Origin: Candidatus Saccharimonadota bacterium
GTDB taxonomy: Bacteria; Bacteroidota; Bacteroidia; Flavobacteriales; Blattabacteriaceae
NCBI RefSeq assembly: GCF_964030875.1
Contig: NZ_OZ034981.1
Span: 1 to 32,000 of the forward strand
Reading direction: 5' to 3'
Length of the DNA: 32,000 nt
Shown here piece by piece: positions 1 through 27,747 of this stretch. Each line of letters begins with the position of its first letter. Position 1 is the first letter of the stretch. The translations under genes and the position numbers were made by a program. The notes under the pieces are model-generated. The model was given only the letters and a program-made list of their open reading frames with translations. It did no database searches and was not told where the DNA came from.

Positions 1-3000
1 TGTATTTGATTTTTGATACTGAAACCAATGGTTTACCGGAAAATTACGATATGTCTATCACTGATCCGGATCAGTGGCCCCGTATGGTTCAACTCGCTTG
101 GCAATTGTATGATGATACCTTTGAAAGAATTGAGGTAAAAAACTTTATTGTCAAATCTGAAGGATTTGATATTCCTTTTAATTCGGTTAAAATTCATGGT
201 ATTACTGCTGAAATCTCTCTAAGAGAAGGATATCCTGTAAAGGATGTTCTTATTTGTTTTAAAAAAGCTCTGGAGAAAAGTCAATTTATAATTGGTCATA
301 ATATTGCTTTTGATATCAACGTTGTAAGTTGCGAATTCTTTAGAAATAATTATCAGAATTTTTTTGGGCCAAAAACTGTTTTAGATACTAAAGATGAATC
401 TATAAATTATTGTGCTTTTAAAGGGAGAGGAAGAGGTAAAAAATTTAAATGGCCCACTCTTACTGAACTATATTATAAACTTTTTGGGACCAATTTTACG
501 CAAGCGCATAATGCTGCTGCAGATGTGGAGGCTACAGTCCATTGCTTTGTGGAATTATTACGTTTAGGTGTCATATCAGTTGATAAATTAGGGATCGATC
601 AATTTAGAGGAAAAAAATTCATAGAGAAGCATCTCCAAAAAGTGAAATCTATGAAGATAAGTCCAATAGGTATAAACGTCTGTAATAATACAGAATTACG
701 TCAACGTCAACGTCAAGTTCAGACTGTAGAAAAACCCGCAAATAATTTGCAAGCAAAATTTGCGCAGATACACAATCATACGACTTTTTCTATTTTATCA
801 GCTACTACAGACGTATCATCTCTTGTCAAACGTGCATTTCAGTGGGGAATGCCTGCGGTAGGTATTACTGATTACGGTAACCTTATGGGATCTTTTTCAT
901 TTTTGAAGGAAATAGAGAAAGCCAATGCTCAAATTGATAAATGTAATCAAAAATCTCAGCCCCTTAAGGGAATTATAGGTTGTGAAATTTTTCTGTCTGA
1001 AAATTATCTTAAAAAAAAATTTACTAAAGATCATCCTGATATACGTTACAAACAAGTTTTTTTAGCAAAGAATAAAAATGGTTATCATAACCTATCTAAA
1101 CTTTGTTCTGAAGGTTACATCAATGGACAATATGCAGGATATCCCCGAGTAGGTAAAGAACTGATTCTGCAATATAAGGAAGGTCTAATAACTTTGACAG
1201 GATATCTTGATTCTGAAATTCCATACACAATACTTAATAAGGGAGAAATCCAGGGAGAAGAAATTTTTAAATGGTGGCATAACACTTTTAAAGATGATTT
1301 TTATGTAGAACTTTTCCGTCACGGATTAGAGGAAGAAGATTATGTTAACGAAGTATTACTTAGATTTTCAGAAAAATATAATGTCAAATATATCCCCCAA
1401 AATAATAGCTTTTATTTAGATCGGGAAGATGCTAATGCTCATGACATTCTGCTTTGTGTACGAGATAGAGAAAAAAAGTCTACACCAATAGGCTCCGGTA
1501 GAGGATGTCGTTTTGGATTTAGTAACCAGGAGTTCTATTTTAAAAGTGCTACTAAGATTATTGAGAATTTTTCAGATTTACCTAAATCCTTTGATTATTT
1601 AGAGGAGTTAATAAATAAAATAAGTCATTATTCTCTAGAAAGAGAAGTTATATTACCTCATTTTGAAATTACTAAAGTTGCATCTGAGGGTCAACGTGGA
1701 GAAAATGCCTATCTGAGTTATTTAGCTTATCAAGGAGCAGAAAAACGTTATGGAAAACTCAGTAAAAGATTGCAAGAACGCTTGGAATTTGAATTGAATA
1801 CCATAGAGAGAACAGGATACCCTGGTTATTTTCTGATTGTTCAAGATATTGTGGCACAGGCTAAAAAAATGGGAATATCTGTAGGTCCTGGTAGAGGATC
1901 GGGAGCTGGATCTTTGGTAGCTTACTGTATAGGTATTACACAGATAGATCCTATTCTATACAATCTCCTTTTTGAGCGTTTTTTAAATCCTGATAGGATC
2001 TCTTTGCCAGATATCGATCTGGATTTTGATGACCGTGGTCGTGACCGAATAATAGCATGGATAGTAAAAAAATATGGGCGAAAACAAGTGGCTAAAATTA
2101 TTACCTATAGTAGGATGGCAGCTAAATCTGCTATACGAGATACCGCTCGCGTTCTTGATCTTCCATTAGCAGATGCTGATCGTTTAGCTAAAATGATGCC
2201 TAATCTTTCGTTGAAAGAACTTTTTTCGTCCACACAGATCCAAGAAAAAATTCATGGATATGACCTAGAAAACGCATTCAAAATTAAAAAAATTTACCAA
2301 GAACAGAATCTGGAAGGAAAAGTTTTACAACAAGCAAGTGTTATTGAAGGATCTCTGAGAAATATCGGAGTGCATGCTTGCGGAATTATCATCACCCCAT
2401 CCGACATTACTAATTATATACCAGTAGCTATTTCCAAGGATTCAGATTTGCTTATGACACAATTTGATAATAATTGGGTCGAAAATGCTGGTCTACTAAA
2501 AATAGACCTTTTAGGTCTAAAAACACTAACTATTATTAAAGATAGCATAAAATTAATCGAAACCCGTCATGGATTAATCCTCAATACGAATCAATTCCCT
2601 TTAGATGATCCCAAAACTTATAAACTTTTCCAACGAGGAGATACCGGAGCAGTATTCCAGTACGAGTCATATGGTATGCAATGTTATATGCGTAAACTCA
2701 ACCCTGACAATTTCGATGACCTCATTGCAATGAATGCACTTTATCGACCAGGTCCATTACAATATATCCCAAATTTTATTGCCCGTAAACATGGTAAGGA
2801 ATCTATAACATATAGTTTCCCTGAAATGGAAGAATTCCTTAGCAGCACTTATGGTATTACTATTTATCAAGAACAAGTAATGTTGTTGGCTCAAAAGCTT
2901 GCCGGATTTGGTAAGGGAGAGGCTGATGTATTACGTAAGGCTATGGGAAAAAAGCAAAAACCCGTACTTGATCAAATGAAAAGTCAGTTTATAGAAGGAG

Positions 3001-4313
3001 CTGTCCAGAAAGGATATACAAAAAAAATCTTAGAAAAAATTTGGACCGATTGGGAATCCTTTGCTTCCTATGCTTTTAATAAATCGCATTCTACTTGTTA
3101 TGCGAATCTTGCTTTTCAAACCGCTTATCTCAAAGCTCATTACCCGTCTGAATATATGGCAGCAGTATTGAGTAATAATATGCACAACCTCAAGGAAATT
3201 ATTTTCCTTATGGAAGAATGTCGTCGGCTAGGAGTATTAGTACTTTGTCCAGATATTAATGAAAGCTATTATACTTTTTCGGTAAATGAAAAAGGAGCTA
3301 TACGTTTTGGCATGGGAGCTATAAAAGGTATAAGGGAAGCTTCGATCGAAGCTATTCTACATGAACGTGAAAAAAAAGGTATTTATCGTTCCATTTTTGA
3401 TTTAGTAAAGAGAGTTGATTTACGTATAGTGAATAAAAAGACTTTAGAGTCTTTAGTACTTTCAGGAGCTTTTGATAGCTTTAGCAATATTCATCGTGCA
3501 CAATATTTTTACCACAAAAATGGGTTCACTGCTCTTGAAAAAATTCTCCGTTTTGGAGAAAAATATCATAATAGCAAACAAAAAAACCAGTGTTCTCTTT
3601 TTCAAGAGGAGCCTGTATTACCATATTGTACTCCCTGGCCAAATCTTATTAAACTCCTGAAGGAAAAAGAAGTCATTGGGATCTACATTAGTTCTCATCC
3701 ATTAGATGATTATCGTCATGAAATTCTAGCTATAGAAGGTATTTCTCTGAAAGAATTCAATAGAAATGAATCTAAATGGAGAGGTAAAGAAGTAAATCTC
3801 TATGGAATCATTCTTCGTTTAGAAAAAAAAATATCTGTAAAAAACAATAGTCGATATGGAGTATTTACTCTAGAAGATTATCAAGGAACGCGTGAGTTCA
3901 GAATATTTGGCGCATATTATACAAAGTATGCTTATTTACTTGTGCCAAATACTTTGATCCATCTTAAGATAATACTTAGGAACTTTAAAAAGTTCCGTGT
4001 CAGCTTCTTGCACATTCAACTGCTTGACAATGTATTGAATTCGATAGATAAATATCTTTATTTGAAGATCGATTTAGAAAGGTTAGATAATGAAATGATT
4101 AATAATATTGAACAGACGATTTCAAAGTATAAGGGTTCTAGAAAATTAAAGGTAATCCTTTTAGATCATCAAGGGAAAATATATATGGGTCTGTTATCTA
4201 GTAGTTATGGAGTTAGTATAGAACGTGGATTATTATCAGATTTAGAAAAAATTCCCAACATTTATTTCTTAATAAGATCCTCTCTAGATGAAAATAAAAG
4301 TAAGAACTACTAA
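1..4313 (+). CDS. dnaE: DNA polymerase III alpha subunit (DnaE1-type) with an N-terminal DnaQ-like DEDDh 3'-5' exonuclease domain; the 5' end probably lies upstream of the window
   Basis: ORF 6..4313, with the frame open back to nt 3. The Exo I motif FDTETNG sits only 4 codons into the ORF, so the true start is likely off-window. Exo II is GHNIAFD and Exo III is HNAAADVEAT (H-x4-D). The PHP domain follows (IHNHTTFS...GITDYGNLMG), then the polymerase core (GPGRGSGAGSLVAYCIGIT, PDIDLDF). A clamp-binding-like QCSLF lies at nt 3588-3602, followed by the OB-fold/C-terminal region. Confidence 0.95.
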   Translation, partial: YLIFDTETNGLPENYDMSITDPDQWPRMVQLAWQLYDDTFERIEVKNFIVKSEGFDIPFNSVKIHGITAEISLREGYPVKDVLICFKKALEKSQFIIGHNIAFDINVVSCEFFRNNYQNFFGPKTVLDTKDESINYCAFKGRGRGKKFKWPTLTELYYKLFGTNFTQAHNAAADVEATVHCFVELLRLGVISVDKLGIDQFRGKKFIEKHLQKVKSMKISPIGINVCNNTELRQRQRQVQTVEKPANNLQAKFAQIHNHTTFSILSATTDVSSLVKRAFQWGMPAVGITDYGNLMGSFSFLKEIEKANAQIDKCNQKSQPLKGIIGCEIFLSENYLKKKFTKDHPDIRYKQVFLAKNKNGYHNLSKLCSEGYINGQYAGYPRVGKELILQYKEGLITLTGYLDSEIPYTILNKGEIQGEEIFKWWHNTFKDDFYVELFRHGLEEEDYVNEVLLRFSEKYNVKYIPQNNSFYLDREDANAHDILLCVRDREKKSTPIGSGRGCRFGFSNQEFYFKSATKIIENFSDLPKSFDYLEELINKISHYSLEREVILPHFEITKVASEGQRGENAYLSYLAYQGAEKRYGKLSKRLQERLEFELNTIERTGYPGYFLIVQDIVAQAKKMGISVGPGRGSGAGSLVAYCIGITQIDPILYNLLFERFLNPDRISLPDIDLDFDDRGRDRIIAWIVKKYGRKQVAKIITYSRMAAKSAIRDTARVLDLPLADADRLAKMMPNLSLKELFSSTQIQEKIHGYDLENAFKIKKIYQEQNLEGKVLQQASVIEGSLRNIGVHACGIIITPSDITNYIPVAISKDSDLLMTQFDNNWVENAGLLKIDLLGLKTLTIIKDSIKLIETRHGLILNTNQFPLDDPKTYKLFQRGDTGAVFQYESYGMQCYMRKLNPDNFDDLIAMNALYRPGPLQYIPNFIARKHGKESITYSFPEMEEFLSSTYGITIYQEQVMLLAQKLAGFGKGEADVLRKAMGKKQKPVLDQMKSQFIEGAVQKGYTKKILEKIWTDWESFASYAFNKSHSTCYANLAFQTAYLKAHYPSEYMAAVLSNNMHNLKEIIFLMEECRRLGVLVLCPDINESYYTFSVNEKGAIRFGMGAIKGIREASIEAILHEREKKGIYRSIFDLVKRVDLRIVNKKTLESLVLSGAFDSFSNIHRAQYFYHKNGFTALEKILRFGEKYHNSKQKNQCSLFQEEPVLPYCTPWPNLIKLLKEKEVIGIYISSHPLDDYRHEILAIEGISLKEFNRNESKWRGKEVNLYGIILRLEKKISVKNNSRYGVFTLEDYQGTREFRIFGAYYTKYAYLLVPNTLIHLKIILRNFKKFRVSFLHIQLLDNVLNSIDKYLYLKIDLERLDNEMINNIEQTISKYKGSRKLKVILLDHQGKIYMGLLSSSYGVSIERGLLSDLEKIPNIYFLIRSSLDENKSKNY

Positions 4314-6021
4314 TGCTGATGACACGAAATATGTTGTAGTTATTTGTCAACAAATCGAGGAATCTGCAAAGATACGTCGAACCGGCATTGCTAAAAGGGA
4401 TCCAGAAGATGTAAAAAAAAAAATTACAGAAGGTCATGCTGTAATAGCTTTTTGTGACGGAATACTTGCTGGATTTAGTTATATAGAAACTTTTCAGGAC
4501 AGACAATTCGTTGCTAATTCTGGTCTTATTGTATTTCCAGAATTTCGTAATAAAGGAGTGGCCAAGCTAATTAAATCAGAAATCTTTCAACTATCTAGAA
4601 AAAAATTTCCTCAGTCTAATATATTCAGTATTACGACTAACATTTCGGTGTTAAAAATGAATATGGACTTGGGTTTCAAACCTGTACCTTTCACAGTACT
4701 ACCCCAATCGGAAGACTTTTGGAAGGGATGTCGAAGTTGTACAAACTATGATATTCTCACTAGACAGAACCGAAAAATGTGTCTATGTAGCGGTCTTTTA
4801 TATGAGACTAGTGAAAAAAAATCTAATAAAAAATTACTTTTTGGGGATAAAATTTTACTTGCTTACAGTGGTGGTCTAGATACCTCTTATTGTTTAAAAT
4901 ACCTAAAACAACAGGGTTATAAGGTGTATACAGCTATCGTAAATACTGGAGGTAGTAGTGAAAAAGAATTAATTGATATAGAAAAAAAGGCTTATGCTAT
5001 AGGAGCCAAATTTCATAGAAATATAGAAGCAAAAAATGATTATTATAAGCATTGTATAAAATATCTGATTTTCGGAAACATTCTACGTAATCAGACTTAT
5101 CCCTTATCAGTAAGTGCCGAAAGAATTTTTCAAGCTATTAAAATAGCGGAATATGCTAATGAAATCAATGCTAAAGCCATAGCTCACGGTAGTACCTGTG
5201 CTGGTAATGACCAGATACGTTTTGATTTAGCCTTTCAAATATTGTGTCCTAATAAAATTATTATAAGCCCGATACGGGATCTTAAACTCTCAAGAAAGGA
5301 GGAAATGGATTATTTACGTGAGCATGGAGTGGACATATTATGGGAAAAAGCGCAATATTCCATGAATAAGGGTCTTTGGGGAACTAGTGTGGGAGGGAAA
5401 GAAACGCTTACTTCTAACCAAAATTTACCAGAAGGAACCTATCCCAACTCTTTACAAGAGTTTAAGCCTAAAAAAATCCAACTAACTTTTGAGAAGGGGG
5501 AATTGATCGCTATCAATGGAGAAGTTACCGATCCAGTGGAAAATATAGTTCGTTTAGAGAGGATTGCTTCTCGTTTTGCTATAGGTCGTGATATTCATGT
5601 AGGTGATACACTTATTGGAATTAAAGGACGTGTAGGATTCGAAGCATCATCAGCATTGATAATTCTCAAGGCTCATCACCTTCTGGAAAAACATGTTCTT
5701 AGTAAATGGCAGATTTATTGGAAAGAACAATTGGGGAATTGGTATGGGATGCTTTTGCACGAAGCGCAATACTTCGATCCGGTTATGCGTGATATTGAAG
5801 CTTTTTTGATGAATTCTCAAGAAAGAGTTAGCGGAATTGTAAGTGTACAGTTGCATCCTTATCGTTTTGAACTTATAGGCATTGAGTCACCTTTTGATCT
5901 TATGCAGACTAAAAAAACAAAATATGGGGAAGAAAATGAGTCCTGTAGTTCTTCAGAAGCTAAAGGATTTATTAAAATATTTGGAACCCCGATGAAAATT
6001 TATCACAGTATTAATCCCTAA
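4288..6021 (+). CDS. argG: Single ORF fusing a GNAT-family N-acyltransferase domain (about aa 1-175) to argininosuccinate synthase (about aa 186-577)
   Basis: The N-terminal part has a GNAT acyl-CoA motif (QFVANSGLIVFPEFRNKGVAKLI). The C-terminal part has the ArgG ATP-pyrophosphatase motif LLAYSGGLDTS plus HGSTCAGNDQIRFD. No stop and no ATG/GTG/TTG lies between the two parts. The ATG at 4288 overlaps the dnaE 3' end by 26 nt. Confidence 0.9.
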   Translation: MKIKVRTTNADDTKYVVVICQQIEESAKIRRTGIAKRDPEDVKKKITEGHAVIAFCDGILAGFSYIETFQDRQFVANSGLIVFPEFRNKGVAKLIKSEIFQLSRKKFPQSNIFSITTNISVLKMNMDLGFKPVPFTVLPQSEDFWKGCRSCTNYDILTRQNRKMCLCSGLLYETSEKKSNKKLLFGDKILLAYSGGLDTSYCLKYLKQQGYKVYTAIVNTGGSSEKELIDIEKKAYAIGAKFHRNIEAKNDYYKHCIKYLIFGNILRNQTYPLSVSAERIFQAIKIAEYANEINAKAIAHGSTCAGNDQIRFDLAFQILCPNKIIISPIRDLKLSRKEEMDYLREHGVDILWEKAQYSMNKGLWGTSVGGKETLTSNQNLPEGTYPNSLQEFKPKKIQLTFEKGELIAINGEVTDPVENIVRLERIASRFAIGRDIHVGDTLIGIKGRVGFEASSALIILKAHHLLEKHVLSKWQIYWKEQLGNWYGMLLHEAQYFDPVMRDIEAFLMNSQERVSGIVSVQLHPYRFELIGIESPFDLMQTKKTKYGEENESCSSSEAKGFIKIFGTPMKIYHSINP

Positions 6022-8125: not shown

Positions 8126-9200
8126 TCCTATCGCTCGTTTAATCCTTCAAAAGGATGATATAGAATATATTGGACATCTTTTTGGAGCACCTGTTTCTTC
8201 TTCTGGAGAAGTTGTTTTTAATACTTCCATGACCGGTTATACAGAAAGCCTTACTGATCCTTCTTATAAAGGACAGTTATTGGTCTATACCTCTCCGATT
8301 ATAGGTAACTACGGAATACCCAATATCATGGAAAAGAGATCAGATTTTTCGGAATCCGAAAACATACATATTAACGGGTTAATCATTTCTGATTATTCTC
8401 ATCATCCTTACCATTGGAACATGAGATATAGTCTTTCGTATTGGTTGAAACAGAATGGTGTTCCAGGAATCTATGGAATAGATACTCGTGCATTGACCCA
8501 AAAAATTCGGGAAGAAGGGACGATGTTAGGAAAAATTATCATAAATCATGATATACCATTTTATGATCCTAATCAGGAAAATCTAGCATCTAAGGTGTGT
8601 ATTAATGAAAAAACTATATATGGACAGGGAAAATACAAGGTGTTGCTGGTTGATTTAGGAGTAAAGAACAATATATTGCGCTGTTTGCTTAACAGAAATT
8701 GCCAGATAATACGTGTGCCATGGGATTATGATTTTTCCAAAGAAGACTATGATGGGATTTTGCTTTCTAATGGACCAGGTAATCCTAAGACTTATCAGAA
8801 GGTTATAAAACACGTGGAGGATGCCCTTAAAGATAATCGTCCTATCTGTGGAATTTGTCTTGGAAATCAATTAATTGGTCTCGCTGCAGGAGTGAATACC
8901 TTTAAACTAAAATATGGGCATCGTGGCTATAACCAACCAGTTTTGCTAGAAGGTACCTATAAGGCATACATAACTTCACAAAATCATGGATACGTCCTTG
9001 ACGTCAAAATTTTGCCTAAAAACTGGAAAATTTTATTTAAAAATCTCAACGATGGATCTTGTGAGGGATTAATACATGAAAATAAACCTTTCTTTTCAGT
9101 GCAATTTCATCCAGAAGCCTCAGGAGGACCTATAGATACCGAATTTTTATTCGATTGGTTTATAGAATGTATGCATACATACAAGAAATTATATAGATGA
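8118..9200 (+). CDS. carA: Carbamoyl-phosphate synthase small (glutamine amidotransferase) subunit
   Basis: Motifs TGYTESLTDPSYKGQ, catalytic Cys ICGICLGNQL and QFHPEASGGP. I prefer the ATG at 8118 over the track's TTG at 8112. It overlaps the argD stop. Confidence 0.93.
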   Translation: MNDPIARLILQKDDIEYIGHLFGAPVSSSGEVVFNTSMTGYTESLTDPSYKGQLLVYTSPIIGNYGIPNIMEKRSDFSESENIHINGLIISDYSHHPYHWNMRYSLSYWLKQNGVPGIYGIDTRALTQKIREEGTMLGKIIINHDIPFYDPNQENLASKVCINEKTIYGQGKYKVLLVDLGVKNNILRCLLNRNCQIIRVPWDYDFSKEDYDGILLSNGPGNPKTYQKVIKHVEDALKDNRPICGICLGNQLIGLAAGVNTFKLKYGHRGYNQPVLLEGTYKAYITSQNHGYVLDVKILPKNWKILFKNLNDGSCEGLIHENKPFFSVQFHPEASGGPIDTEFLFDWFIECMHTYKKLYR

Positions 9201-12200
9201 AAAAAATTCTTGTTATTGGTTCTGGGGCTTTGAAAATTGGAGAGGCCGGAGAATTTGATTATTCAGGAACACAAGCCTTAAAAGCAATTAAAGAAGAGGG
9301 AATAGAGACTATTTTAGTGAATCCTAATATCGCTACGGTGCAAACCTCTGAAGGTATAGCCGATCAAATTTATTTTCTTCCGATTTCCCAAAAATTTATT
9401 AAAAAAGTCATAGAAAAAGAAAAACCTAGTGGACTTTTGTTATCCTTCGGAGGACAAACAGCATTAAATTGTGGCGTGAAACTTTTTGAAAAAGGTGTAT
9501 TGAAAAAACATGTTATAAAAGTTTTAGGTACTCCTATAGAGTCTATTATTGCTAGTGAAGATCGAGATCTTTTTCGAGATAAACTCAATACTATGAATAT
9601 CAAAACGGCTCGTGGTATAGTGGTACATTCTCTGGAAGAAGCCTTTTCGGCCTCTGAAGAAATCGGCTTTCCTCTAATTATAAGAACTTCTTATGCCTTA
9701 GGAGGACTTAGTAGTGGATTTGCTCACGATAAAAAGGAATTGGCAACATTGATAGACATAGCTTTATCACATTCTTCACAAATCCTTATAGAAGAATCCC
9801 TGAAAGGTTGGAAGGAAATAGAATATGAAGTCATGTGTGACCGATACGGAAATTGTATTACGGTATGCAATATGGAAAATTTCGACCCCATTGGGATACA
9901 TACAGGAGACAGCATAGTAGTAGCTCCTTCACAAACTCTTACTAATTCTGAATATCAGAAACTTCGCACATTTTCTCTGTCTATTGCCCGTGCATTCGGA
10001 ATAATAGGAGAATGTAATGTGCAGTTCGCTTTATCACCAAATTCTGAGGATTATCGTCTTATTGAAATAAATGCAAGACTTTCTCGTTCAAGTGCTTTAG
10101 CTTCTAAAGCTACGGGGTATCCAATAGCCTTTATAGCAGCTAAACTAGCTTTAGGCTATGGATTACATGAATTAAAGAATTATGTAACCCAAACTACTTC
10201 TGCTTTTTTTGAACCGTCTCTTGATTATGTAGTGTGCAAATTTCCTCGTTGGGATTTAAAAAAATTCTACCGATCAGATAAAAAAATTGACAGTAGTATG
10301 AAAAGTGTGGGTGAAGTTATGTCAATAGGAGGATCTTTTGAGGAGGCGTTCCAGAAAGGATTACGGATGCTTGATATAGGATTAGAAGGATTCATCAATC
10401 CTAAAAAAAAATCTTTATATGACACTCTTGAAAAACGTCTTATAATTCCTACCGATCATAGAGTAGAAGCACTTGAAGATGCTTTTGATGAAGGCTACAC
10501 AGCAGAAAAACTTTATGATCTGACACGTATTGATCTTTGGTTTCTTTACAAGCTTCGCAATATTCATAACACAAAAAAAATACTATCACGGTACAAAAAG
10601 TCTGAAGATTTACCTAAAAATATTTTTTATTTAGCCAAAAAGCAAGGATATTCAGATCGACAAATAGGAGCTATTCTTAGCCCAGACGTACATATGTCTA
10701 TATCTTCTTCTATGGTTCGTCAGAGACGAAAAACTATAAAAATTTTTCCAAACGTACGTCGTATAGACACTTTATCAGCTGAATATCCAGCATATACCAA
10801 CTACTTGTATATGAGTTATCATGCTTATCGTCATGATATTGATTACGAAGGGGATGGGCGGTCAGTAGTAGTTTTAGGATCTGGTGTATATCGTATAGGT
10901 AGTAGTGTAGAATTTGATTGGTGTTGTGTGAACACATTAAAGGTTCTTCATTCTGAAGGTTATCGATCGATAATGATCAACTGTAATCCTGAAACTGTCA
11001 GTACAGATTTTGATGAATGTGATAGATTATATTTTGAAGAACTCACTCTAGAACGTGTGCTAGATATTCTAGAACTAGAAACCCCGAAAGGGACGATTGT
11101 ATCTATGGGAGGACAAATTTCCAACAATCTGGCATTACCACTCCATAAAAATAAGCAAAGAATTTTAGGAAGCTTAGCCACTTCTATAGATGAAGTAGAA
11201 GACCGTTATAAGTTTTCCAAAGCTTTGGATATACTAGGCATAGAACAACCTATGTGGAAAGAATTTTCTAATCTGAACGATATTCATCCCTTTATTAGAG
11301 AGGTCGGATATCCGATATTAATACGACCATCGTATGTACTATCAGGTTCAGGAATGAACGTAATTTTTAATGTAGAAGAACTTAGATACTTTTTTGATAA
11401 ATTGGAGACTATCTCGTCTGAACATTCAGTAGTGATAAGTAAATTTATAGAAAATGCTAAAGAAATCGAACTCGATGCTGTGGCCCATCAAGGGTCTCTT
11501 ATTTATCATGCCGTATCCGAGCATATAGAATTTGCTGGATTACATTCAGGAGATGCTACTTTAGTATATCCTCCGCAAAATATTTACTTCTCTACGTTAC
11601 AAGAAATAGAACGGATTTCTAAAAAAATTGCACGATATTTTCATATTTCAGGACCTTTTAATATACAGTTTATTTCGATAAATAACCGAATTAAAGTAAT
11701 AGAGTGCAATTTACGAGCTTCCAGAAGTTTTCCTTTTATTTCTAAAGTATCTGGATTTAATCTAATCCGATTAGCTACTGAAGTAATGTTAGGAAAACTC
11801 ACGAATCCTTGTGGAATTTTTTTTTCTTTTAATTATATAGGTGTAAAAGTTTCGTACTTCTCCTTTTCACGGATTCCAGGTACAGATCCTGTCCTAGGAG
11901 TAGATATGGTTTCTACAGGTGAAGTAGGTTGTTTGGGAAACAATTTTCATGAGGCACTCATAAAAGCTATGTTGGCCGCTGGCTATAGCATACCTATCAA
12001 GCATATTTTAATTTCAGGAGAAATTTCTTCTTTCAAAGAAGATTTTATTAATACTATTAAACTATTGGTGTATAAGGGATATAAACTGTTTTCTACAGAG
12101 GATATATATCCATTTATGATGGATTATGGTTTAACTACAAAGCTATTGTACTGGCCAGGTGTGCATAATTTCCCAAATGTCCTCGATTATATACGAAAGA

Positions 12201-12499
12201 AAAAAATTGATTTCATTATCAATATTCCTAAGAACAAATATTCCGAAATAGATAATAACTATACTATAAGACGCTCAGCAGTAGATTTCAATATTCCACT
12301 TTTAACTAATACTAGTTTAGCTAAAGCCTTTATCGTGGCTTTCTGTAAAGAAGAACCAGAAGAACTAACTATAGCAGAATGGAAAAGTTATATGAAACGA
12401 TTTTTTAGTGTTCAAGATATTCCTAATGTACCTGTTTTGGTAAAGGAGGCATTATCTCTTAAAAAAGCTCCTTATATAGAACTTGTAAAAAAAAAATAA
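9197..12499 (+). CDS. carB: Carbamoyl-phosphate synthase large subunit. The CarB-homologous part ends near 12391, and the last 35 codons of the ORF are the N-terminus of argF' read in the same frame.
   Basis: 1100-aa ORF with two ATP-grasp halves (NPNIATVQTS..., IEINARLSRSSALASKATGYPIA; second half VIECNLRASRSFPFISKVSG) and an MGS-like C-terminal domain. ATGA overlap with carA. No stop codon before the ATG at 12392. Confidence 0.95.
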   Translation: MKKILVIGSGALKIGEAGEFDYSGTQALKAIKEEGIETILVNPNIATVQTSEGIADQIYFLPISQKFIKKVIEKEKPSGLLLSFGGQTALNCGVKLFEKGVLKKHVIKVLGTPIESIIASEDRDLFRDKLNTMNIKTARGIVVHSLEEAFSASEEIGFPLIIRTSYALGGLSSGFAHDKKELATLIDIALSHSSQILIEESLKGWKEIEYEVMCDRYGNCITVCNMENFDPIGIHTGDSIVVAPSQTLTNSEYQKLRTFSLSIARAFGIIGECNVQFALSPNSEDYRLIEINARLSRSSALASKATGYPIAFIAAKLALGYGLHELKNYVTQTTSAFFEPSLDYVVCKFPRWDLKKFYRSDKKIDSSMKSVGEVMSIGGSFEEAFQKGLRMLDIGLEGFINPKKKSLYDTLEKRLIIPTDHRVEALEDAFDEGYTAEKLYDLTRIDLWFLYKLRNIHNTKKILSRYKKSEDLPKNIFYLAKKQGYSDRQIGAILSPDVHMSISSSMVRQRRKTIKIFPNVRRIDTLSAEYPAYTNYLYMSYHAYRHDIDYEGDGRSVVVLGSGVYRIGSSVEFDWCCVNTLKVLHSEGYRSIMINCNPETVSTDFDECDRLYFEELTLERVLDILELETPKGTIVSMGGQISNNLALPLHKNKQRILGSLATSIDEVEDRYKFSKALDILGIEQPMWKEFSNLNDIHPFIREVGYPILIRPSYVLSGSGMNVIFNVEELRYFFDKLETISSEHSVVISKFIENAKEIELDAVAHQGSLIYHAVSEHIEFAGLHSGDATLVYPPQNIYFSTLQEIERISKKIARYFHISGPFNIQFISINNRIKVIECNLRASRSFPFISKVSGFNLIRLATEVMLGKLTNPCGIFFSFNYIGVKVSYFSFSRIPGTDPVLGVDMVSTGEVGCLGNNFHEALIKAMLAAGYSIPIKHILISGEISSFKEDFINTIKLLVYKGYKLFSTEDIYPFMMDYGLTTKLLYWPGVHNFPNVLDYIRKKKIDFIINIPKNKYSEIDNNYTIRRSAVDFNIPLLTNTSLAKAFIVAFCKEEPEELTIAEWKSYMKRFFSVQDIPNVPVLVKEALSLKKAPYIELVKKK

Positions 12500-13355
12500 G
12501 ATTATAGGATTAGTCTTTTTTAATCCAAGCTTGAGAACCCGTTTGAGCAGTCAAAAAGCTGCTTTTCACCTAGGTTGCGATACTTGGACACTAAATATAG
12601 ATCAGGATTCTTGGAAAATAGAGATGAATGATGGTTCCGTTATGGAACGTCACTCCCAAGAACATCTAAAAGAAGCCGTTGGAGTGATGAGTTTATATTG
12701 CGATATATTAGGTGTTCGAACCTTTCCTGGACTAAAAAATCGAGATTCTGATTATCAAGAAATTCTTTTTAATCATATAGAAAATTATTCTCACGTTCCT
12801 ATAGTTAATTTAGAAAGTGCTACACGTCACCCCTTGCAATCTTTAGCTGATGCTATGACTATTGAAGAGTGTCGTGTTCCTGGAAAACCTATAAAAGTAG
12901 TACTTAGTTGGGCCCCTCATCCTAAAGCTTTACCACATTCAGTGCCTAATTCTTTTATAGAATGGATTTCCAAATTACCTAATATTGATCTAATAATTAC
13001 TCACCCTATTGGATATGAGCTTGATAAAGAAATTACTAAAAATACAAATATTCTTTATAATCAAGAAGAAGCCTTCAAGGATGCAGATTTTATTTATGCA
13101 AAAAATTGGAGCAGTTATACCTATTACGGTAAGGTTCTATGTCATGACACTAGATGGATGATTACTTGTGATAAGATGTCCCTTACTAATAAGGCAAAAT
13201 TTATGCATTGCCTACCCATTAGACGCAATGTAGTAGCGGTAGACGCTGTTCTAGATTCCTATATTTCTTTGATTTTTCAAGAGGCTGAAAATCGTATATT
13301 CGCTTCTAAGGCTATTTTCAAAAGAATATTGAACGCATTATCATGTTGCATATAG
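12392..13355 (+). CDS. argF: N-acetyl/N-succinyl-ornithine carbamoyltransferase (argF'-type), interrupted by a frameshift in an A10 tract at 12487-12496. It is either a pseudogene or is rescued by slippage.
   Basis: The downstream ORF 12531..13355 begins at the carbamoyl-phosphate motif (S)LRTRLS and keeps TRHPLQSLAD and FMHCLPIRRN. The missing N-terminus (MKRFFSVQDIPNVPVLVKEALSLKKAPYIELVKK) is encoded from ATG 12392 in the carB frame. Deleting one A joins them into 963 nt / 320 aa. Confidence 0.85.
12487..12496 (+). repeat. A10 homopolymer at the argF' frameshift site
   Basis: Counted directly: gt-aaaaaaaaaa-taag. TAA at 12497-12499 terminates the carB/argF' N-terminal frame immediately after the run. 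Confidence 0.95.
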
Positions 13356-14116
13356 TTAAAATAGGAGGAAAAATTATTGATGATAAAGCTTTATTAAATA
13401 CCTCTCTTGAAAATTTTCATGCATTGAATGGTCCTAAAATTTTGGTACATGGAGGAGGAAAATCTGCTAATTTACTTTCGAAGAAGATGGGGATACGTAC
13501 ACAAATAATAGAAGGCCGACGAATTACAAATCGTCCCACTATAAATGTGGTAGTGATGAGTTATGCTGGTCTTACAAACAAGACTTTGGTAGCACGTTTA
13601 CAAGCAATAGGCTGTAATGCTATAGGACTTTCTGGGGCTGATGGAAATATCATTCGTTCTAATCGAAGACCTGTCAAAAGTATAGATTATGGATATGTAG
13701 GTGATTTATATGAAAAAAGTATTAATATCTATAATCTTTCTACTATGATGAAAGTTGGTTTTGTCCCTGTATTTTGTGCTATTACTCATGATGGTAAAGG
13801 AAATTTGTTAAATACTAATGCCGATGCTATAGCTTCATTTATAGCTATTTCTTTGTCTAAGACCCATCAAACAGTTTTACATTTTTGCTTAGAAAAAAAA
13901 GGTGTCCTCCGTCAGTATAATGAGGAAGATTCTTTTTTCGAAAAAATGAATGTTGATGACTTTAGAAAATTTAAACAAGAAAATCTCATTACAGGAGGAA
14001 TGATTCCTAAATTAGAAAATGCCTTTGAAGCCTTGCAAAAAGGAGTGAATCAAGTAAACATAGGTCATCCTTACTATTTGAATAAATCTAAGGAGAAAAC
14101 AATTCTATGTTTATAA
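13343..14116 (+). CDS. argB: Acetyl(acyl)glutamate kinase
   Basis: 257 aa amino-acid-kinase fold with IVKIGGKIIDD, ILVHGGGKSAN and LLNTNADAIAS. It overlaps the argF' 3' end by 13 nt. Confidence 0.92.
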   Translation: MLHIVKIGGKIIDDKALLNTSLENFHALNGPKILVHGGGKSANLLSKKMGIRTQIIEGRRITNRPTINVVVMSYAGLTNKTLVARLQAIGCNAIGLSGADGNIIRSNRRPVKSIDYGYVGDLYEKSINIYNLSTMMKVGFVPVFCAITHDGKGNLLNTNADAIASFIAISLSKTHQTVLHFCLEKKGVLRQYNEEDSFFEKMNVDDFRKFKQENLITGGMIPKLENAFEALQKGVNQVNIGHPYYLNKSKEKTILCL

Positions 14117-14506: not shown

Positions 14507-14580
14507 GGTCTGGTAGTTCAGCTGGTTAGAATACGTGCCTGTCACGCACGAGGTCGCGGGTTCAAGTCCCGTCCAGACCG
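14507..14580 (+). tRNA. tRNA-Asp (anticodon GTC)
   Basis: Manual cloverleaf, 74 nt. Acceptor ggtctgg/ccagacc; D stem gttc/gaat; anticodon stem cgtgc/gcacg with loop ctGTCac; variable aggtc; T arm gcggg-ttcaagt-cccgt; discriminator g. CCA is not encoded. Confidence 0.95.
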
Positions 14581-14749
14581 CTAATCGTCATTGATAGTTG
14601 TGAAATAAAGACTACTACTATCATTAACCCTTAACCCTGCATGGGTTCTCTTTTCCTACAGTACTAACAGTATTTCGAAAAGTATGGAAAGGTCTGCTTC
14701 AAAACAATCTTCACACACTTATAATCAAGAAGAACTCGTGCTATAATAG

Positions 14750-15725
14750 ATGCAAAACGTAGAAAGTTTCTAATTCTACTGATGACCACAAAATATAGGA
14801 CAACAAGTCGTTTTAAGCGGGTGTCTTCTAGATCTCGGTGCAGTAATATTCATTTATTTGAGAGATAGTTATGGAATAACACAATTTATTTTTTCTAATC
14901 CATTACTAGTACGTGAGTTTGTTGTTCTAATTTATGGAAAAGATCATCTAAGTAAAAATCCGACTGGGTACATTGAAGTGCTTAATTCGCATGAAATACC
15001 GATAAATCCTGCGTAAATGACTATTCTCTTTCCAAGGCTCAAGGCTCCCCTCTAATCTTTTTGCTTCTCGTATCCAGGATGGATATTTGTTCCCTCAATC
15101 TCCTCAGTCTCCTCAGTCTCCTCAGTCCTTTATAGGTATATAAGATTGCTATATGAAGATTTTCGTTCATATCGCCAACCTTAATTTACCTGTGAAATAT
15201 TTTTCGTCGTACGGTCAGATATTTGATTTCTTTTTGAAGAACTCATAGTATATCTTTTCGATATACTCCTTTCCTTCGTATTCCCTAAACCCATCTCTGT
15301 AATTGCAATTATACAAGAAAACAACTTTATGAACTAGTAGAGTGGGTAATACGGACCCAAATTGGAGCGAAAGAACTTATCTGGGTAAAATGTCTTACAG
15401 ATTAAAATCATCAGTAGATAAATTCTTTAGTCAAGTACTTTCTGGAAAAACTAAAGAGACTAGGGTTCCGTTGTTCTCCACTACCACTAAAACCGTAAAA
15501 GCATAATGGATATTATCATCCAGCTCCTAAAGAGGAAGACTATCCTTTGTTAGTGATTATAGGTGGAGGTTATAAACTATTATGGTGCTCCTATTGCTTT
15601 AGGATTAGATAGAGCAGTATTATTCGGTGAGGAAAATATAATCTGACAAAAAATCATTAAGGTCGAGATATTCTGATAGATAGCCCATACACAAGAACTA
15701 GGTAGACCTAAATGGGACCCCTAGT
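14750..15725 (+). pseudogene. aspS: Decayed aspartyl-tRNA synthetase gene, about 55% of normal length, with multiple stops and frameshifts
   Basis: There are no ORFs across 14581-15784, but scattered in-order AspRS-like segments are present:
- MQNVESF*FY**PQNIGQQVVLSGCLLDLGAVIFIYLRDSYGITQFIFSNP (from 14750; compare E. coli [47 protein letters not shown])
- NPTGYIEVL
- PQSPQ motif region (15093-15131)
- CY/EDFRSYRQP*FT (15146-15190; compare CFRDEDLRADRQPEFT)
- GAKELIWVK (about 15364)
- HPAPKEED
- GAPIALGLDRAVLFGEENI (about 15585-15640; compare GLAFGLDRL..LTGTDNIRDVIAFPK). Confidence 0.85.
15096..15128 (+). repeat. Tandem 9-bp repeat (tctcctcag x3) inside the aspS relic
   Basis: caa tct cct cag tct cct cag tct cct cag tcc = QSPQSPQSPQS. 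The conserved class IIb motif is a single PQSPQ. Confidence 0.9.
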
Positions 15726-15784
15726 TTAAACATAATAGACGCAGGGATCTTTTTCTTGAAGCTCTTGTAAAAGAATTATAAGTT

Positions 15785-23223: not shown

Positions 23224-24303
23224 ATGGTAATACAAGAACAAGTAAAAGAGATAGTTCATAGAGTAAAAGATCTTTATTATTCTCTAGAAATAGAGAAGAA
23301 ACAATTGGAAATAAGCAATGAAGAAGAAAAAACAACTTCTTATGACTTTTGGAATGATCCGATACATGCTCAACAGGTTCTGAAAAAGATCCAATATAAC
23401 AAGAAATTAGTCAAAAAATACCTCAAAGCAAAATGTGCTGCAGAAGAATTACAAGTACTTTATGATTTTTTTAAAGAAGGAGAAGCTAATGTAAAAGAAA
23501 TAGAAAAACAGGTAGAAAAAACCGAAAAAATTCTGTCGGATATAGAATATAAACATCTCCTTTCTGAGAAAGAAGACCCTTTAAGTGCAGTACTACAAAT
23601 TTCTTCTGGAGCAGGAGGTACAGAGAGTTGCGATTGGTCTTACATGCTTATGAGGATGTATTTAATGTGGGGACAAAAAAACAACTACAAAATAACAAAA
23701 ATTCACCATGTTCCAGGAGATATAGTAGGGATTAAATCAGTCACGTTAGAATTTGAAGGGGAATATGCCTTTGGTTACCTAAAAGGAGAAAACGGCGTTC
23801 ACCGGCTAGTACGGATTTCTCCTTTTGACAGTAATGCTAAAAGACATACTTCTTTTGCCTCGGTCTATGTTTATCCTCTTATAGAGAATTCTATTGAAAT
23901 AGAAGTAAAATCTTCCGATATTGTTTGGGAAACTTTCCGTTCTAGTGGAACAGGAGGACAGAATGTGAACAAAGTAGAAACAGGAGTTCGGTTGCGATAT
24001 CAAGGTCTTATAATAGAAAATACAGAATCACGTTCACAGCAAAGAAATAAAGAGAAAGCTTTACAGCTTCTAAAATCTAGGCTTTTTGAAATAGAAATGC
24101 AGAAGCGTCTCTCTAAACGAGAAGCAATAGAGACAAAGAAAAAGAAAATTAAATGGGGATCCCAAATTAGGAATTATATTATGCATCCGTATAAACTTGT
24201 AAAGGATTTACGCACGGGTTACGAAACTTCAGATGTAGATTCGGTGATGAATGGGGAATTAAATGATTTACTAAAGAAAAGTTATATGGTAAAAAATGCT
24301 TGA
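23224..24303 (+). CDS. prfB: Peptide chain release factor 2, encoded in a single frame with no programmed +1 frameshift site
   Basis: 359 aa with the SPF tripeptide (RISPFDS), specific for RF2, and GGQ (SSGTGGQNVNKVETGVR). The position of the usual CTT TGA shift site reads CTT TAT (23272-23277). Confidence 0.93.
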   Translation: MVIQEQVKEIVHRVKDLYYSLEIEKKQLEISNEEEKTTSYDFWNDPIHAQQVLKKIQYNKKLVKKYLKAKCAAEELQVLYDFFKEGEANVKEIEKQVEKTEKILSDIEYKHLLSEKEDPLSAVLQISSGAGGTESCDWSYMLMRMYLMWGQKNNYKITKIHHVPGDIVGIKSVTLEFEGEYAFGYLKGENGVHRLVRISPFDSNAKRHTSFASVYVYPLIENSIEIEVKSSDIVWETFRSSGTGGQNVNKVETGVRLRYQGLIIENTESRSQQRNKEKALQLLKSRLFEIEMQKRLSKREAIETKKKKIKWGSQIRNYIMHPYKLVKDLRTGYETSDVDSVMNGELNDLLKKSYMVKNA

Positions 24304-24497: not shown

Positions 24498-27400
24498 CTA
24501 CGGTAAAGAAAAATTTGCTTGAAAAAGGAAAGAAATAGTTTCTCTATTAATCTCGTTCATAGTCTTCTGAAAGAGATTGAAAGCTTCCACTTTATAAATT
24601 AGTAAGGGGTCTTTTTGTTCATATACGGCATTTTGTACAGAATCACGTAGTTCATCTATCTCTTTGAGATGTTCTTTCCACTTCTCATCTATAAGAGATA
24701 ATACCGTTGCACGTTCACATTCACGGATGAAACTTTTTCCTTTACTTTCATAAGCTTTCTTAATATCTAAAACTGCATAAATATTCCTAACACCATCAGT
24801 AATAGGGACTTGTATTAGTTTATATTGTGCCTTATAAATATTTTCAATAATAGTAAAAAATATTGCAGCAGTATGTTCTTGTCTCAATTGAAGACTATTG
24901 AGAGCATCATGATAGAGACTATTTACAATTTCTTTTTTTTTTATAGAAGTAAAATCTTCATACTTTATCAGTGACTCTGATGCAAAATTCTGAACCCATT
25001 CATATTGTAAATGCTCAAAATGATTTAATTCTTTGTTGCTTGAAACAAGATTCTGTATAGTATAATATAGCATGGTTGCGATATCAATAGATAGACGTTC
25101 TCCTAATAAGGCATTTTTTCTTTTTCTATAGATTACTTCACGTTGTTTATTGATTACATCATCATATTCAAGTAAACGCTTTCGAAGACTAAAATTCTTT
25201 TCTTCTATTTTTTTCTGTGCTTGCTCAATTGAACGAGTAATCAATGGGTGTTGTATAATATCTCCTTCTTTATGACCCAATTTATCCATTACTTTAGCAA
25301 TACGATATGATCCAAATAAACGCATTAAATTATCTTCTAAAGAGATAAAAAATTGAGAACTTCCTGGATCTCCTTGTCGGCCAGAACGTCCACGTAACTG
25401 CTTATCTATTCTTCTAGAATCATGACATTCGGTACCTAATATAGCTAATCCACCAGCGGATTTTGCTTCAGGAGAAAGTTTAATATCAGTTCCTCTTCCA
25501 GCCATATTTGTAGCTATAGTAATTACTCCTTTATTACCGGCTTTTGCAATAATATTGGCTTCTTCTTTATGTAATTTAGCGTTCAAAACATTATGGTGGA
25601 TTTTTTTAAGCTTCAGAGTACGACTTAATAATTCTGATACCTCTATTGAAGTAGTTCCTACAAGAATCGGACGTTTTTCTTTTTGAGAAATTTTTAATAT
25701 TTCATTAATAATAGCATTATATTTTTCTCGTTTAGTTTTAAAAACAAGATTTTGATAATCTTTACGTTGGACTGGTTTATGTGGAGGTATAGTTACTACA
25801 TCAAGTTTATAAATTTGTCCAAATTCTCCAGATTCAGTTGCAGCTGTACCAGTCATTCCAGCTAATTTTTTATACATTCTAAAATAATTCTGCAAAGTAA
25901 TAGTAGCAAAAGTTTGTGTAGAGGATTCTATTTGAACGTTTTCTTTTGCTTCAAGAGCTTGATGCAATACATCAGAATAACGACGACCTTCCATAATTCG
26001 TCCAGTTTGTTCATCAATAATTTTTACACTTCCATCTAAAACAATATAATCTATATTTTTTTCAAAAAAAGTATAAGCTTTAAGTAATTGATTAAACATA
26101 TGAAGACGTTTTGATTTAAGAAAAAATTCTTTTAACAGTTCTTCTTTTTGTTTATTTTCTTTCTTTTTAGGTAATTTTTTATATTCAAGTTGAACAATAT
26201 CAGTAATAATATCTCGTACAATAAAAAAATTTGAAAGAAAATTTATTCCTTTATCCGTCAGTTCTATTGTATTATTTTTTTCGGAAATAATAAAATAAAG
26301 ATTATCATCAATTTTATGCAGATCTTTATCCTGCATATATTCAGTATTTTTAAGTAATAGACGAATGTTTTCTTCATTGATAAATTTTATTAAAGGCTTA
26401 GATTTAGGGAAGCCACGATATACTTGCAATAATTTAAATACTCCATTTTTTGGATCTCCTAATTCAATAAGTTTTTTAGCTTCATTAAATGTTTTGTTCA
26501 GTTGAATTCGTTGTTGCTGAATAATGTTTTCAACTTTTGGTTTAAGTATATTAAATTCATTATAAGTTTCTTGAGAAATTGCTCCTGATATAACTAATGG
26601 AGTCCTCGCATCATCTATTAAAACAGAATCTATTTCATCTATTATAGCATAGTTAAGTTCACGTTGAACAATTTCTTCTATAGAACAAGCTATATTATCA
26701 CGTAAATAATCAAATACAAATTCATTGCTAGTACCGTAAGTAATATCAGCAGCATAAGCTTTTCGACGCAGATATGTATTAGGAAAATAATTATTTATGC
26801 AATCTACACTTAACCCATGAAATTCCATTAGAGGAGCCATCCAAGCTGCATCTCTTTTAGCTAAATAATCACTAATTGTTACTATATGTATTCCTCTTCC
26901 TGTCAGAGAATTAAGATAAATAGGCAAAGTAGCTACTAATGTTTTACCTTCTCCTGTAGCCATTTCAGCAATTTTTCCTTGATGAAGGATCACTCCTCCT
27001 ATCAGTTGCGTATCATAATGTACCATGTCCCAGACAATAGGTTTACCATTAGCATCCCAAATATGTTTCCAAATAGCTATATTTTTTTGTAAAACGACAT
27101 ATTTTTTTTTATAGTATAAAATTTGATCAAAAGGAGTAATTTGAACATGAATTTCTACATTTTCTTTAAACCTACGTGCTGTTTCTTTAATTACCGCAAA
27201 AGCTTCTGGTAAAATTTCTAAAAGTATTTTTTCTTCAAGATTATATAATCTTTTTTTTTTGCTATCTATAATTTCATAAAGATTTTCTTTAACATCAACA
27301 TCTTTCTCTTTGTCAGCTTGTTTATGTAAAGAAATAATATTATTATAAATTTTTTTAGTCTTTTTTTTTAAGATTTTTTTAAATAAAATAGTTTTATTAC

Positions 27401-27536
27401 GGAGTTCATCATGAGAAAGTGAACTAATAGTTGACTCAAACTTTTTTATTTTTGTTAAAAATTGTTTAGCGTTATGAATATCTCTTTCATTCTTATTTAC
27501 GAAGAAACTTTTTAGTATTTTTTCACGAAAATTCAT
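24498..27536 (-). CDS. secA: Preprotein translocase ATPase SecA
   Basis: DEAD-motor motifs (MATGEGKTLVATLP, IIDEIDSVLIDDARTPLVISG, TNMAGRGTDIKL, RGRSGRQGDPGSSQFF). Candidate ATG starts lie at 27560, 27542 and 27536. I prefer 27536 (MNFREKILKSFF...) by N-terminal similarity, but the start is uncertain. Confidence 0.95.
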   Translation of the reverse strand: MNFREKILKSFFVNKNERDIHNAKQFLTKIKKFESTISSLSHDELRNKTILFKKILKKKTKKIYNNIISLHKQADKEKDVDVKENLYEIIDSKKKRLYNLEEKILLEILPEAFAVIKETARRFKENVEIHVQITPFDQILYYKKKYVVLQKNIAIWKHIWDANGKPIVWDMVHYDTQLIGGVILHQGKIAEMATGEGKTLVATLPIYLNSLTGRGIHIVTISDYLAKRDAAWMAPLMEFHGLSVDCINNYFPNTYLRRKAYAADITYGTSNEFVFDYLRDNIACSIEEIVQRELNYAIIDEIDSVLIDDARTPLVISGAISQETYNEFNILKPKVENIIQQQRIQLNKTFNEAKKLIELGDPKNGVFKLLQVYRGFPKSKPLIKFINEENIRLLLKNTEYMQDKDLHKIDDNLYFIISEKNNTIELTDKGINFLSNFFIVRDIITDIVQLEYKKLPKKKENKQKEELLKEFFLKSKRLHMFNQLLKAYTFFEKNIDYIVLDGSVKIIDEQTGRIMEGRRYSDVLHQALEAKENVQIESSTQTFATITLQNYFRMYKKLAGMTGTAATESGEFGQIYKLDVVTIPPHKPVQRKDYQNLVFKTKREKYNAIINEILKISQKEKRPILVGTTSIEVSELLSRTLKLKKIHHNVLNAKLHKEEANIIAKAGNKGVITIATNMAGRGTDIKLSPEAKSAGGLAILGTECHDSRRIDKQLRGRSGRQGDPGSSQFFISLEDNLMRLFGSYRIAKVMDKLGHKEGDIIQHPLITRSIEQAQKKIEEKNFSLRKRLLEYDDVINKQREVIYRKRKNALLGERLSIDIATMLYYTIQNLVSSNKELNHFEHLQYEWVQNFASESLIKYEDFTSIKKKEIVNSLYHDALNSLQLRQEHTAAIFFTIIENIYKAQYKLIQVPITDGVRNIYAVLDIKKAYESKGKSFIRECERATVLSLIDEKWKEHLKEIDELRDSVQNAVYEQKDPLLIYKVEAFNLFQKTMNEINRETISFLFQANFSLP

Positions 27537-27747
27537 CTTCATTGAAAAAGAAATCCTCATTATTGGGATAATCTATCCATATTTCTTCTATAGATTCATA
27601 AGTATCACCGTCATCTTCAAGTTGTTGAAGATTCTCTATTACCTCCAAAGGAGCTCCACTCCGCATGGCATAATCTATAAGTTCATCTTTATTCGCTGGC
27701 CAAGGAGCATCCTCAAGATATGAGGCTAATTCTAACGTCCAGTACAT
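27523..27747 (-). CDS. Small acidic DUF2795-family protein (74 aa) overlapping the secA start
   Basis: MYWTLELASYLEDAPWPANKDELIDYAMRSGAPLEVIENLQQLEDDGDTYESIEEI matches my memory of the DUF2795 pattern (L..YL....(Y/W)PA.K.EL...A...GAP..V...L..L.....Y.S..E). ATG at 27747. Its TGA stop lies inside the secA 5' end. Confidence 0.8.
   Translation of the reverse strand: MYWTLELASYLEDAPWPANKDELIDYAMRSGAPLEVIENLQQLEDDGDTYESIEEIWIDYPNNEDFFFNEDEFS

Follow-up and report, generated by a model that had tools for sequence, protein, structure and literature searches.

An ancient poly(A) frameshift in argF' of Walczuchella, a constrained ornithine carbamoyltransferase gene that may be rescued by slippage

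The first 32,000 nucleotides of contig NZ_OZ034981.1 (RefSeq assembly GCF_964030875.1, forward strand; this whole stretch is referred to below as the window) carry an arginine-synthesis gene, argF', whose reading frame is broken within a run of ten A. The question raised by this locus is whether argF' is a sequencing artefact, a dead gene or a gene that is still used with its frameshift in place. The proteins closest to those of the window belong to Candidatus Walczuchella monophlebidarum, a flavobacterial symbiont whose hosts are giant scale insects. No exact match to the window's own open reading frame (ORF) was found in the protein records; the DNA is nonetheless identical to CP170564 (Icerya purchasi strain ICPU) over 8,089 nt. 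The GC content is 33 %. The comparisons presented here point, with a probability of roughly 60 %, to a functional argF' that is rescued by slippage on the A tract, most likely at the level of transcription.

The elements of the broken gene and its downstream neighbour are the following:

12392..12499, plus strand: N-terminal fragment of argF' in frame 0, 35 codons and a TAA, coding for the N-terminal strand, helix H1 and part of the next loop
12487..12496, plus strand: A10 tract with the +1 A frameshift; GTC followed by A9 in clade II of Walczuchella (see below), in-frame A8 in the outgroups
12489..13355, plus strand: remainder of argF' in the +1 frame, with the motifs SLRTR, HPLQ and HCLP, ending at TAG 13353-13355; no stop or indel in nine aligned lineages
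12531..13355, plus strand: mechanically called ORF starting at TTG; the start is not credible, as it would cost the protein strand beta-2 and the first residue (Ser) of the carbamoyl-phosphate motif
13343..14116, plus strand: argB (acetylglutamate kinase), overlapping the end of argF' by 13 nt and used as an intact comparator gene

The fragment opened by ATG 12392 translates as MKRFFSVQDIPNVPVLVKEALSLKKAPYIELVKKK* and terminates at TAA 12497-12499, directly after the tract. The +1 frame is closed by TAA 12486-12488, opens at 12489, reads KKNKIIGLVFFNPSLRTRLS and encodes IIGLVFFNPSLR upstream of 12531. The mechanical ORF of 274 aa begins at the TTG that codes for Leu of the S-L-R-T-R carbamoyl-phosphate motif. 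The initial annotation had described this start at SLRTR, the missing N-terminal residues lying upstream in another frame and the layout of fragment, tract, stop codon and open +1 frame, and all of it was confirmed in the sequence and by translation. Its prediction that nine A would give a full-length carbamoyltransferase was borne out by in silico deletion of one A, which yielded argF' of 963 nt / 320 aa with the junction ...ELVKKNKIIGL..., and by the family and structure matches (OTCace_N and 1JS1) described in the next paragraph. The addition of two A (A12) also restored the frame, with one extra Lys, to give 321 aa (ELVKKKNKIIGL). The junction VKKNKIIGL of the repaired protein corresponds to VKKNKTIGL in the closest in-frame relative (contig L011). 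The window contains 14 A or T runs of at least 9 bases and only the A10 of argF' disrupts a reading frame, so the coincidence of tract and frame break is not a matter of chance.

The repaired protein was matched by the NCBIfam profile NF003384 (N-acetylornithine carbamoyltransferase) in a single stretch covering profile positions 3-334 of 336, with 285.5 bits, slightly under the curated cut-off of 288, while the second-best family, OTCase, reached 129 bits. In Pfam, OTCace_N and OTCace both scored above their cut-offs and OTCace_N spans the junction (residues 4-159). The closest solved structures were those of the Bacteroides fragilis transcarbamylase (1JS1, 2G7M and 2FG6, E ~1e-94), followed by the Xanthomonas campestris N-acetylornithine transcarbamylase (AOTCase, E ~5e-51); the alignment with 1JS1 covers residues 1-316 (E 8e-95). 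The motifs SLRTR (46-50), HPLQ (146-149) and HCLP (272-275) fall on invariant alignment columns, and the catalytic motifs SxRTR, HPxQ and HCLP are retained in all Walczuchella lineages. The residue aligned to Pro90 of B. fragilis, which we take to be the switch between succinyl and acetyl substrates, is Gln. By its sequence the 320-aa product, which is colinear with its homologues, is probably an acetyl/succinyl-ornithine carbamoyltransferase and, with Gln at the Pro90 position, may prefer either acyl group. It resembles the known N-succinyl- and N-acetyl-ornithine transcarbamylases (B. fragilis 1JS1/2FG6, X. campestris 3KZK) in this colinearity and in the retained motifs, and differs from them in the frameshift of its gene and in the Gln.

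The 35-codon fragment aligns to residues 1-35 of the homologues and includes the invariant F4 and K24 as well as the nearly invariant M1, S6, D9, L16 and P27. AlphaFold modelling of the repaired protein (mean pLDDT 87) assigned the first strand and helix H1 (residues 13-25) to the fragment and placed the residues encoded by the tract (32-35) within the loop 26-36 that connects H1 with strand beta-2 (37-42). Alignment indels show that homologues vary in length within this loop. According to the model the tract therefore sits at a tolerant surface-loop position, and both the product of a −1 correction (VKKNK) and that of a +2 correction (VKKKNK) are plausible enzymes that should fold.

The age of the lesion was established by comparison with 12 other Walczuchella loci, derived from six complete genomes (CP006873, CP170563, CP170564, CP170565, CP170567 and CP170568) and six Logan/ENA assembly contigs. 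At the DNA level the argF' frame was found to be broken at the identical alignment column in all 12, in both subclades of the symbiont. Two forms of the tract occur, which differ in composition and are equal in total length:

GAACTTGT-A-AAAAAAAAA-TAA (GTA+A9): the window, L004, L006 (ICPU), L007 (ICSE) and L008 (CRGE), that is the Icerya/Crypticerya clade, referred to as the window's clade
GAACTTGT-C-AAAAAAAAA-TAA (GTC+A9): LLAX (L001/L014), DRCO (L002), DRPI (L071/L072), L003, L005 and L009/L010, that is the Drosicha/Llaveia clade, referred to as clade II

These groups coincide with the Crypticerya+Icerya and Drosicha+Llaveia subclades that Choi et al. (PMC12188211) reported in 2025. In the outgroups A8 keeps the gene in frame, as in L011 (TAC GTT AAA AAA AAT AAA ACC, YVKKNKT) and L012 (CTT AAA AAA AAT AAA), and Blattabacterium and free-living relatives have G-K-N-K-T at the position of the tract. 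It follows that the ancestor common to all sampled Walczuchella lineages gained one A in its A8 run, and that in Icerya/Crypticerya a synonymous substitution to GTA lengthened this run to A10. The members of the Walczuchella ArgF' protein clusters (at least 90 % identity) are all annotated as short proteins of 270-293 aa. As regards the closest outgroup itself, the L011 contig (ERZ22864839) carries an intact, in-frame argF' (77 % identity at the protein level). Its carB was called in four pieces (360, 261, 196 and 220 aa); the coverage of the contig is ~3x and the breaks may be assembly errors.

The persistence of the gene after so old a lesion was assessed by aligning 8 kb of the locus across nine lineages and using as a neutral yardstick a spacer that follows the tRNA-Asp gene:

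14582..15784, strand not assigned: non-coding spacer after tRNA-Asp, neutral-rate comparator

Substitutions and indels in the spacer and in argF' compared as follows:

Within the window's clade: spacer substitutions 3.6-7.6 % and 13-17 indel events; argF' substitutions 0.9-1.7 % and 0 indels
Between the clades: spacer substitutions 28-32 % and 36-46 indel events, from an alignment that is close to saturated and could thus exaggerate the neutral rate; argF' substitutions 3.7-4.5 % and 0 indels

Repaired argF' is 963 nt long in all lineages. The initial annotation's observation that the rest of the gene is free of further lesions and keeps HPLQ and HCLP extends to the nine aligned lineages, none of which has an additional stop or indel. 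In every comparison 0 indels were found in 964 nt of argF', where the spacer rate predicts 10-37 events, and the probability of such an absence at the spacer rate is 3e-5 to 1e-16. The contrast within the window's clade (0 indels observed, 10-14 expected) is the most robust of the constraint results. In the 105-nt N-terminal fragment, in turn, no indel and 0-7 substitutions had accumulated, where the spacer rate would predict 4-33 substitutions; in the comparisons with 3-7 substitutions, ~30 were expected. The fragment would be useless unless it were still joined to the rest of the protein, hence its conservation speaks for restoration of the frame. Between the clades the Nei-Gojobori dN/dS of argF' was 0.26-0.43, in comparison to 0.44-0.53 for argB, 0.21-0.34 for carA and 0.29-0.42 for carB, and neutrality of argF' was rejected with p = 9e-5 (window vs LLAX); within clades the dN/dS tests have little power. 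These comparisons show that both pieces of argF' are under purifying selection.

The comparator was itself inspected. The search for RNA genes in the 1.3-kb region after trx revealed only tRNA-Asp (14507-14581), which was left out. The remaining 1.2 kb of spacer has no ORF of at least 90 aa and no match to an RNA family, contains many indels and changes 4-8 times faster than the flanking genes. In the corresponding region of L002 a remnant of 41 aa gives a weak tRNA-synt_2 match, and because of this match the spacer is probably a decayed aminoacyl-tRNA synthetase gene.

The reading we favour may be set out as follows. The ancestral sequence was GTN AAA AAA AAT AAR (A8, V-K-K-N-K), and the insertion of one A shifted the first 35 codons out of frame with the 285 that follow. 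Those expression events in which slippage occurs on the tract, a fraction of the total, would then yield the full-length enzyme. The most likely route is slippage of RNA polymerase on the T-run template, producing mRNAs that are one A shorter (320 aa) or two A longer (321 aa), and a +1 slip of tRNA-Lys on the A run before UAA may contribute. That slippage occurs at this tract, whether in transcription or in translation, and that its product is active is what we infer from the DNA.

Precedents for such a rescue come from other insect symbionts. PMC3017870, citing Tamas 2008 and Wernegreen 2010, describes poly(A) frameshifts in Blochmannia and Buchnera that are conserved between species with no decay of the gene, ~30 % of transcripts being in frame through RNA polymerase slippage. 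According to the review by Atkins et al. (PMC5009743), runs of 9 A or T yield slipped mRNAs in bacteria. The argF' locus shares with those of Blochmannia and Buchnera its setting in an AT-rich obligate endosymbiont of insects, a single-base indel in an A run of at least 9, an ORF with no other damage, conservation of the frameshift among diverged host lineages and evolutionary rates like those of intact genes. It differs in that the host bacterium belongs to the Flavobacteriales (Bacteroidota) and is not a gammaproteobacterium, in that slippage is here a proposal, in that the lesion is +1 A and requires −1 or +2 for correction, and in that in one clade the upstream carB reads into the gene, so that rescue would also generate a fusion. 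In the available text of Choi et al. 2025 (PMC12188211) carB, trpC and mnmE of Walczuchella are named as tract pseudogenes 'potentially rescuable by transcriptional slippage'. This is the same idea applied to the same organism, and one of these sites, in carB, lies in the window (10403-10411); argF' is absent from the list as given there, and the annotation of those genomes treats it as an intact gene of short length (270-290 aa).

Several points weigh against a functional gene restored by slippage. Traverse and Ochman 2017 (PMC5574713) found that slippage on A/T runs in Buchnera mostly inserts one base, and their genome-wide profiling of errors detected no frame-restoring event in that symbiont, whereas argF' needs −1 or +2, the less common outcomes. 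Long tracts also stand in frame in intact genes of the window, namely four in secA (A10 twice and A9 twice) and one A11 at 4413-4423, which means that slippage cannot be very frequent without a cost. Synonymous divergence (~0.1) is far under that of the spacer (~0.3), which joins the possible overstatement of the neutral rate between clades mentioned above. Some clade II sequences are altered beside a catalytic motif, e.g. NTSLRTRV. Finally, no in-frame argF' of Walczuchella was found in public protein clusters at 90 % identity or higher or among the assembled contigs of the protein collection.

The strongest competitor, to which we give a clearly smaller chance, also assumes a functional argF' and places the restoration of the frame mainly on the ribosome. 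tRNA-Lys(UUU) would slip +1 within AAA AAA AAA or at AAA|UAA to give a product with ...VKKNK... or ...VKKKK.... All lineages have such a codon series with a UAA of frame 0 immediately after it, and both the sequence and the evolutionary constraint fit this route as well as they fit transcriptional slippage. In addition, release factor 1 (RF1) is reported as lost or pseudogenised in some Walczuchella genomes and mnmE as a poly(A)-tract pseudogene by Choi et al. (PMC12188211). The UAA, however, arises automatically once an A is inserted into AAA AAT AAR and for this reason does not count as independent evidence for ribosomal frameshifting. Loss of RF1 and loss of mnmE, a gene for tRNA U34 modification, could both raise frameshifting. 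Inspection of the sequence upstream of the tract revealed no stimulator resembling a Shine-Dalgarno (SD) sequence, and RF2 is intact in the window. The predicted hairpin after the UAA is not conserved among the lineages: a 7-bp structure at 12498-12517 (z −2.3) was considered as a conserved RNA stimulator and rejected, there being no covariation and the key pair occurring as G/C, U/A, G/A and U/C. The prfB gene for RF2 (23224-24303; TIGR00020, 438.6 bits) is a single uninterrupted ORF of 359 aa and therefore has no programmed +1 frameshift site of the sort that many bacterial prfB genes contain. The likeness of argF' to that type of programmed frameshifting consists in a slippery codon directly before a 0-frame stop and a product continuing in the +1 frame; argF' differs in having neither an SD-like stimulator nor a conserved structure, and in the origin of its stop as a by-product of the insertion.

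Before the next proposal can be weighed, the upstream gene has to be described:

9197..12391, plus strand: carB, for the large subunit of carbamoyl-phosphate synthase; its own stop codon is missing
10403..10411, plus strand: second poly(A) site, in carB; A9, in frame in the window's clade (PKKKSLYD)

In the window the carB ORF runs in frame from 9197 through ATG 12392 to the TAA ending at 12499 and codes for 1100 aa, the match to the profile of the carbamoyl-phosphate synthase (CPSase) large subunit ending at about residue 1053. In clade II and the outgroups carB ends with ...GTA TGA, the TGA overlapping the ATG of argF' (an ATGA stop/start overlap). The window's clade lacks 8 bp at the end of carB by comparison with them, which places carB in frame with the argF' fragment. 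The loss of the stop is common to ICPU, ICSE, CRGE and L004, with ORFs of 1100-1102 aa. The 35-codon fragment is thus not a free-standing ORF in the window's clade, and the statement of the initial annotation that every neighbouring arginine gene is intact has to be qualified in view of carB.

If slippage takes place as favoured here, ribosomes coming from carB on a slipped mRNA in Icerya/Crypticerya would make a CarB-ArgF' fusion of ~1385 aa, owing to the missing carB stop, beside the ArgF' begun at ATG 12392. It may even be, and this we regard as rather improbable, that the tract acts as a slippage-controlled junction: unslipped expression would give CarB with a 35-residue tail, slipped expression the fusion, and the retention of the arrangement throughout the clade would reflect selection, not drift. 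Were this so, the fusion would be a bacterial analogue of the arrangement of CPSase and aspartate transcarbamylase (ATCase) in CAD and could channel carbamoyl phosphate.

The poly(A) site of carB behaves differently from that of argF'. It is A10 in LLAX (L001, ~2930) and A11 in DRCO (L002, ~2925), L003, L005 and L009; both lengths break the frame, each to a different extent, and the remainder of carB is conserved there. The frameshift in carB is confined to clade II and variable (A10/A11), whereas that in argF' is fixed in every sampled lineage.

The gene might also work with no restoration of the frame at all, either as two polypeptides (the 35-aa peptide and a body of ~290 aa) or as an N-terminally truncated protein started in the +1 frame. 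In clade II a TTG (cTTGTCAAA; CTTGTCAAA...) opens an ORF of 290 aa, which begins before the 35-codon ORF has ended and is annotated in this way, and the break falls in a surface loop which could tolerate fragment complementation. In the window's clade, however, the corresponding TTG 12483 is followed immediately by TAA, and the other possible starts are ATT/ATA at 12501-12506 (CTT/ATC in CRGE, hence unconserved) or TTG 12531 within SLRTR. An internal start was accordingly rejected after a codon-by-codon check as feasible in clade II only, through its TTG; in the window's clade argF' is equally free of indels. A truncated form would also be without helix H1 and the conserved N-terminus, including F4 and K24. 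We consider an enzyme of this kind unlikely.

Less likely still is that argF' is a plain pseudogene whose decay is yet to come. The background is favourable to such a view: 27-84 pseudogenes per genome and erosion of arginine synthesis are described for Walczuchella by Choi et al. (PMC12188211), argF is given as not found by Rosas-Perez et al. 2014 (PMC3971599), and carB, which supplies the substrate, is itself frameshifted in clade II. Nevertheless, the lesion is older than the split of the subclades and no indels or stops have been added in the nine aligned lineages, substitutions are 4-8 times rarer than in the adjacent spacer, and the intact neighbours have the same dN/dS.

The two remaining ideas, both raised by the initial annotation, namely a homopolymer error of sequencing or assembly (long A runs being error-prone on several platforms) and a very recent, strain-specific inactivation, are practically eliminated by the same break in six complete genomes and six independent contigs of both subclades, by the C+A9 composition at equal length in one clade and by the in-frame A8 of the outgroups.

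A poly(A) frameshift maintained by selection is apparently unreported for this gene in Walczuchella. The locus changes the metabolic picture of the symbiont: a full argF' is present, constrained and frameshifted, which bears on the supply of arginine to the host. It also extends selectively maintained homopolymer frameshifts, described earlier in gammaproteobacterial symbionts, to Bacteroidota. With one tract in two natural variants (A10 and C+A9), argF' may serve as a test locus for rescue by slippage, to which the neighbouring carB tract adds natural in-frame, +1 and +2 alleles. For annotation the lesson is that frameshifts close to the N-terminus escape pseudogene filters based on length.

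Three other genes of the window deserve mention:

6..4313: ORF for DNA polymerase III alpha, 1435 aa, in which the PHP domain is preceded by an RNase_T domain (epsilon-like exonuclease, residues 2-180)
4288..6021: continuous ORF of 577 aa, residues 1-186 with a weak match to GNAT acetyltransferases and residues 187-576 corresponding to argG, with no intervening stop
24498..27560, minus strand: secA, with tracts that are poly(A) in the mRNA sense at 24933-24942 and 27251-27260 (T10) and at 27102-27110 and 27361-27369 (T9), all in frame

The first of these may have the normal architecture of Bacteroidota or may be a dnaQ-dnaE fusion. The second contains the in-frame A11 at 4413-4423 mentioned above (EDVKKKITEG) and may be another fusion caused by the loss of a stop or merely an ORF extended upstream. 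As to secA, if slippage at such tracts were frequent, a sizeable share of its transcripts would be out of frame.

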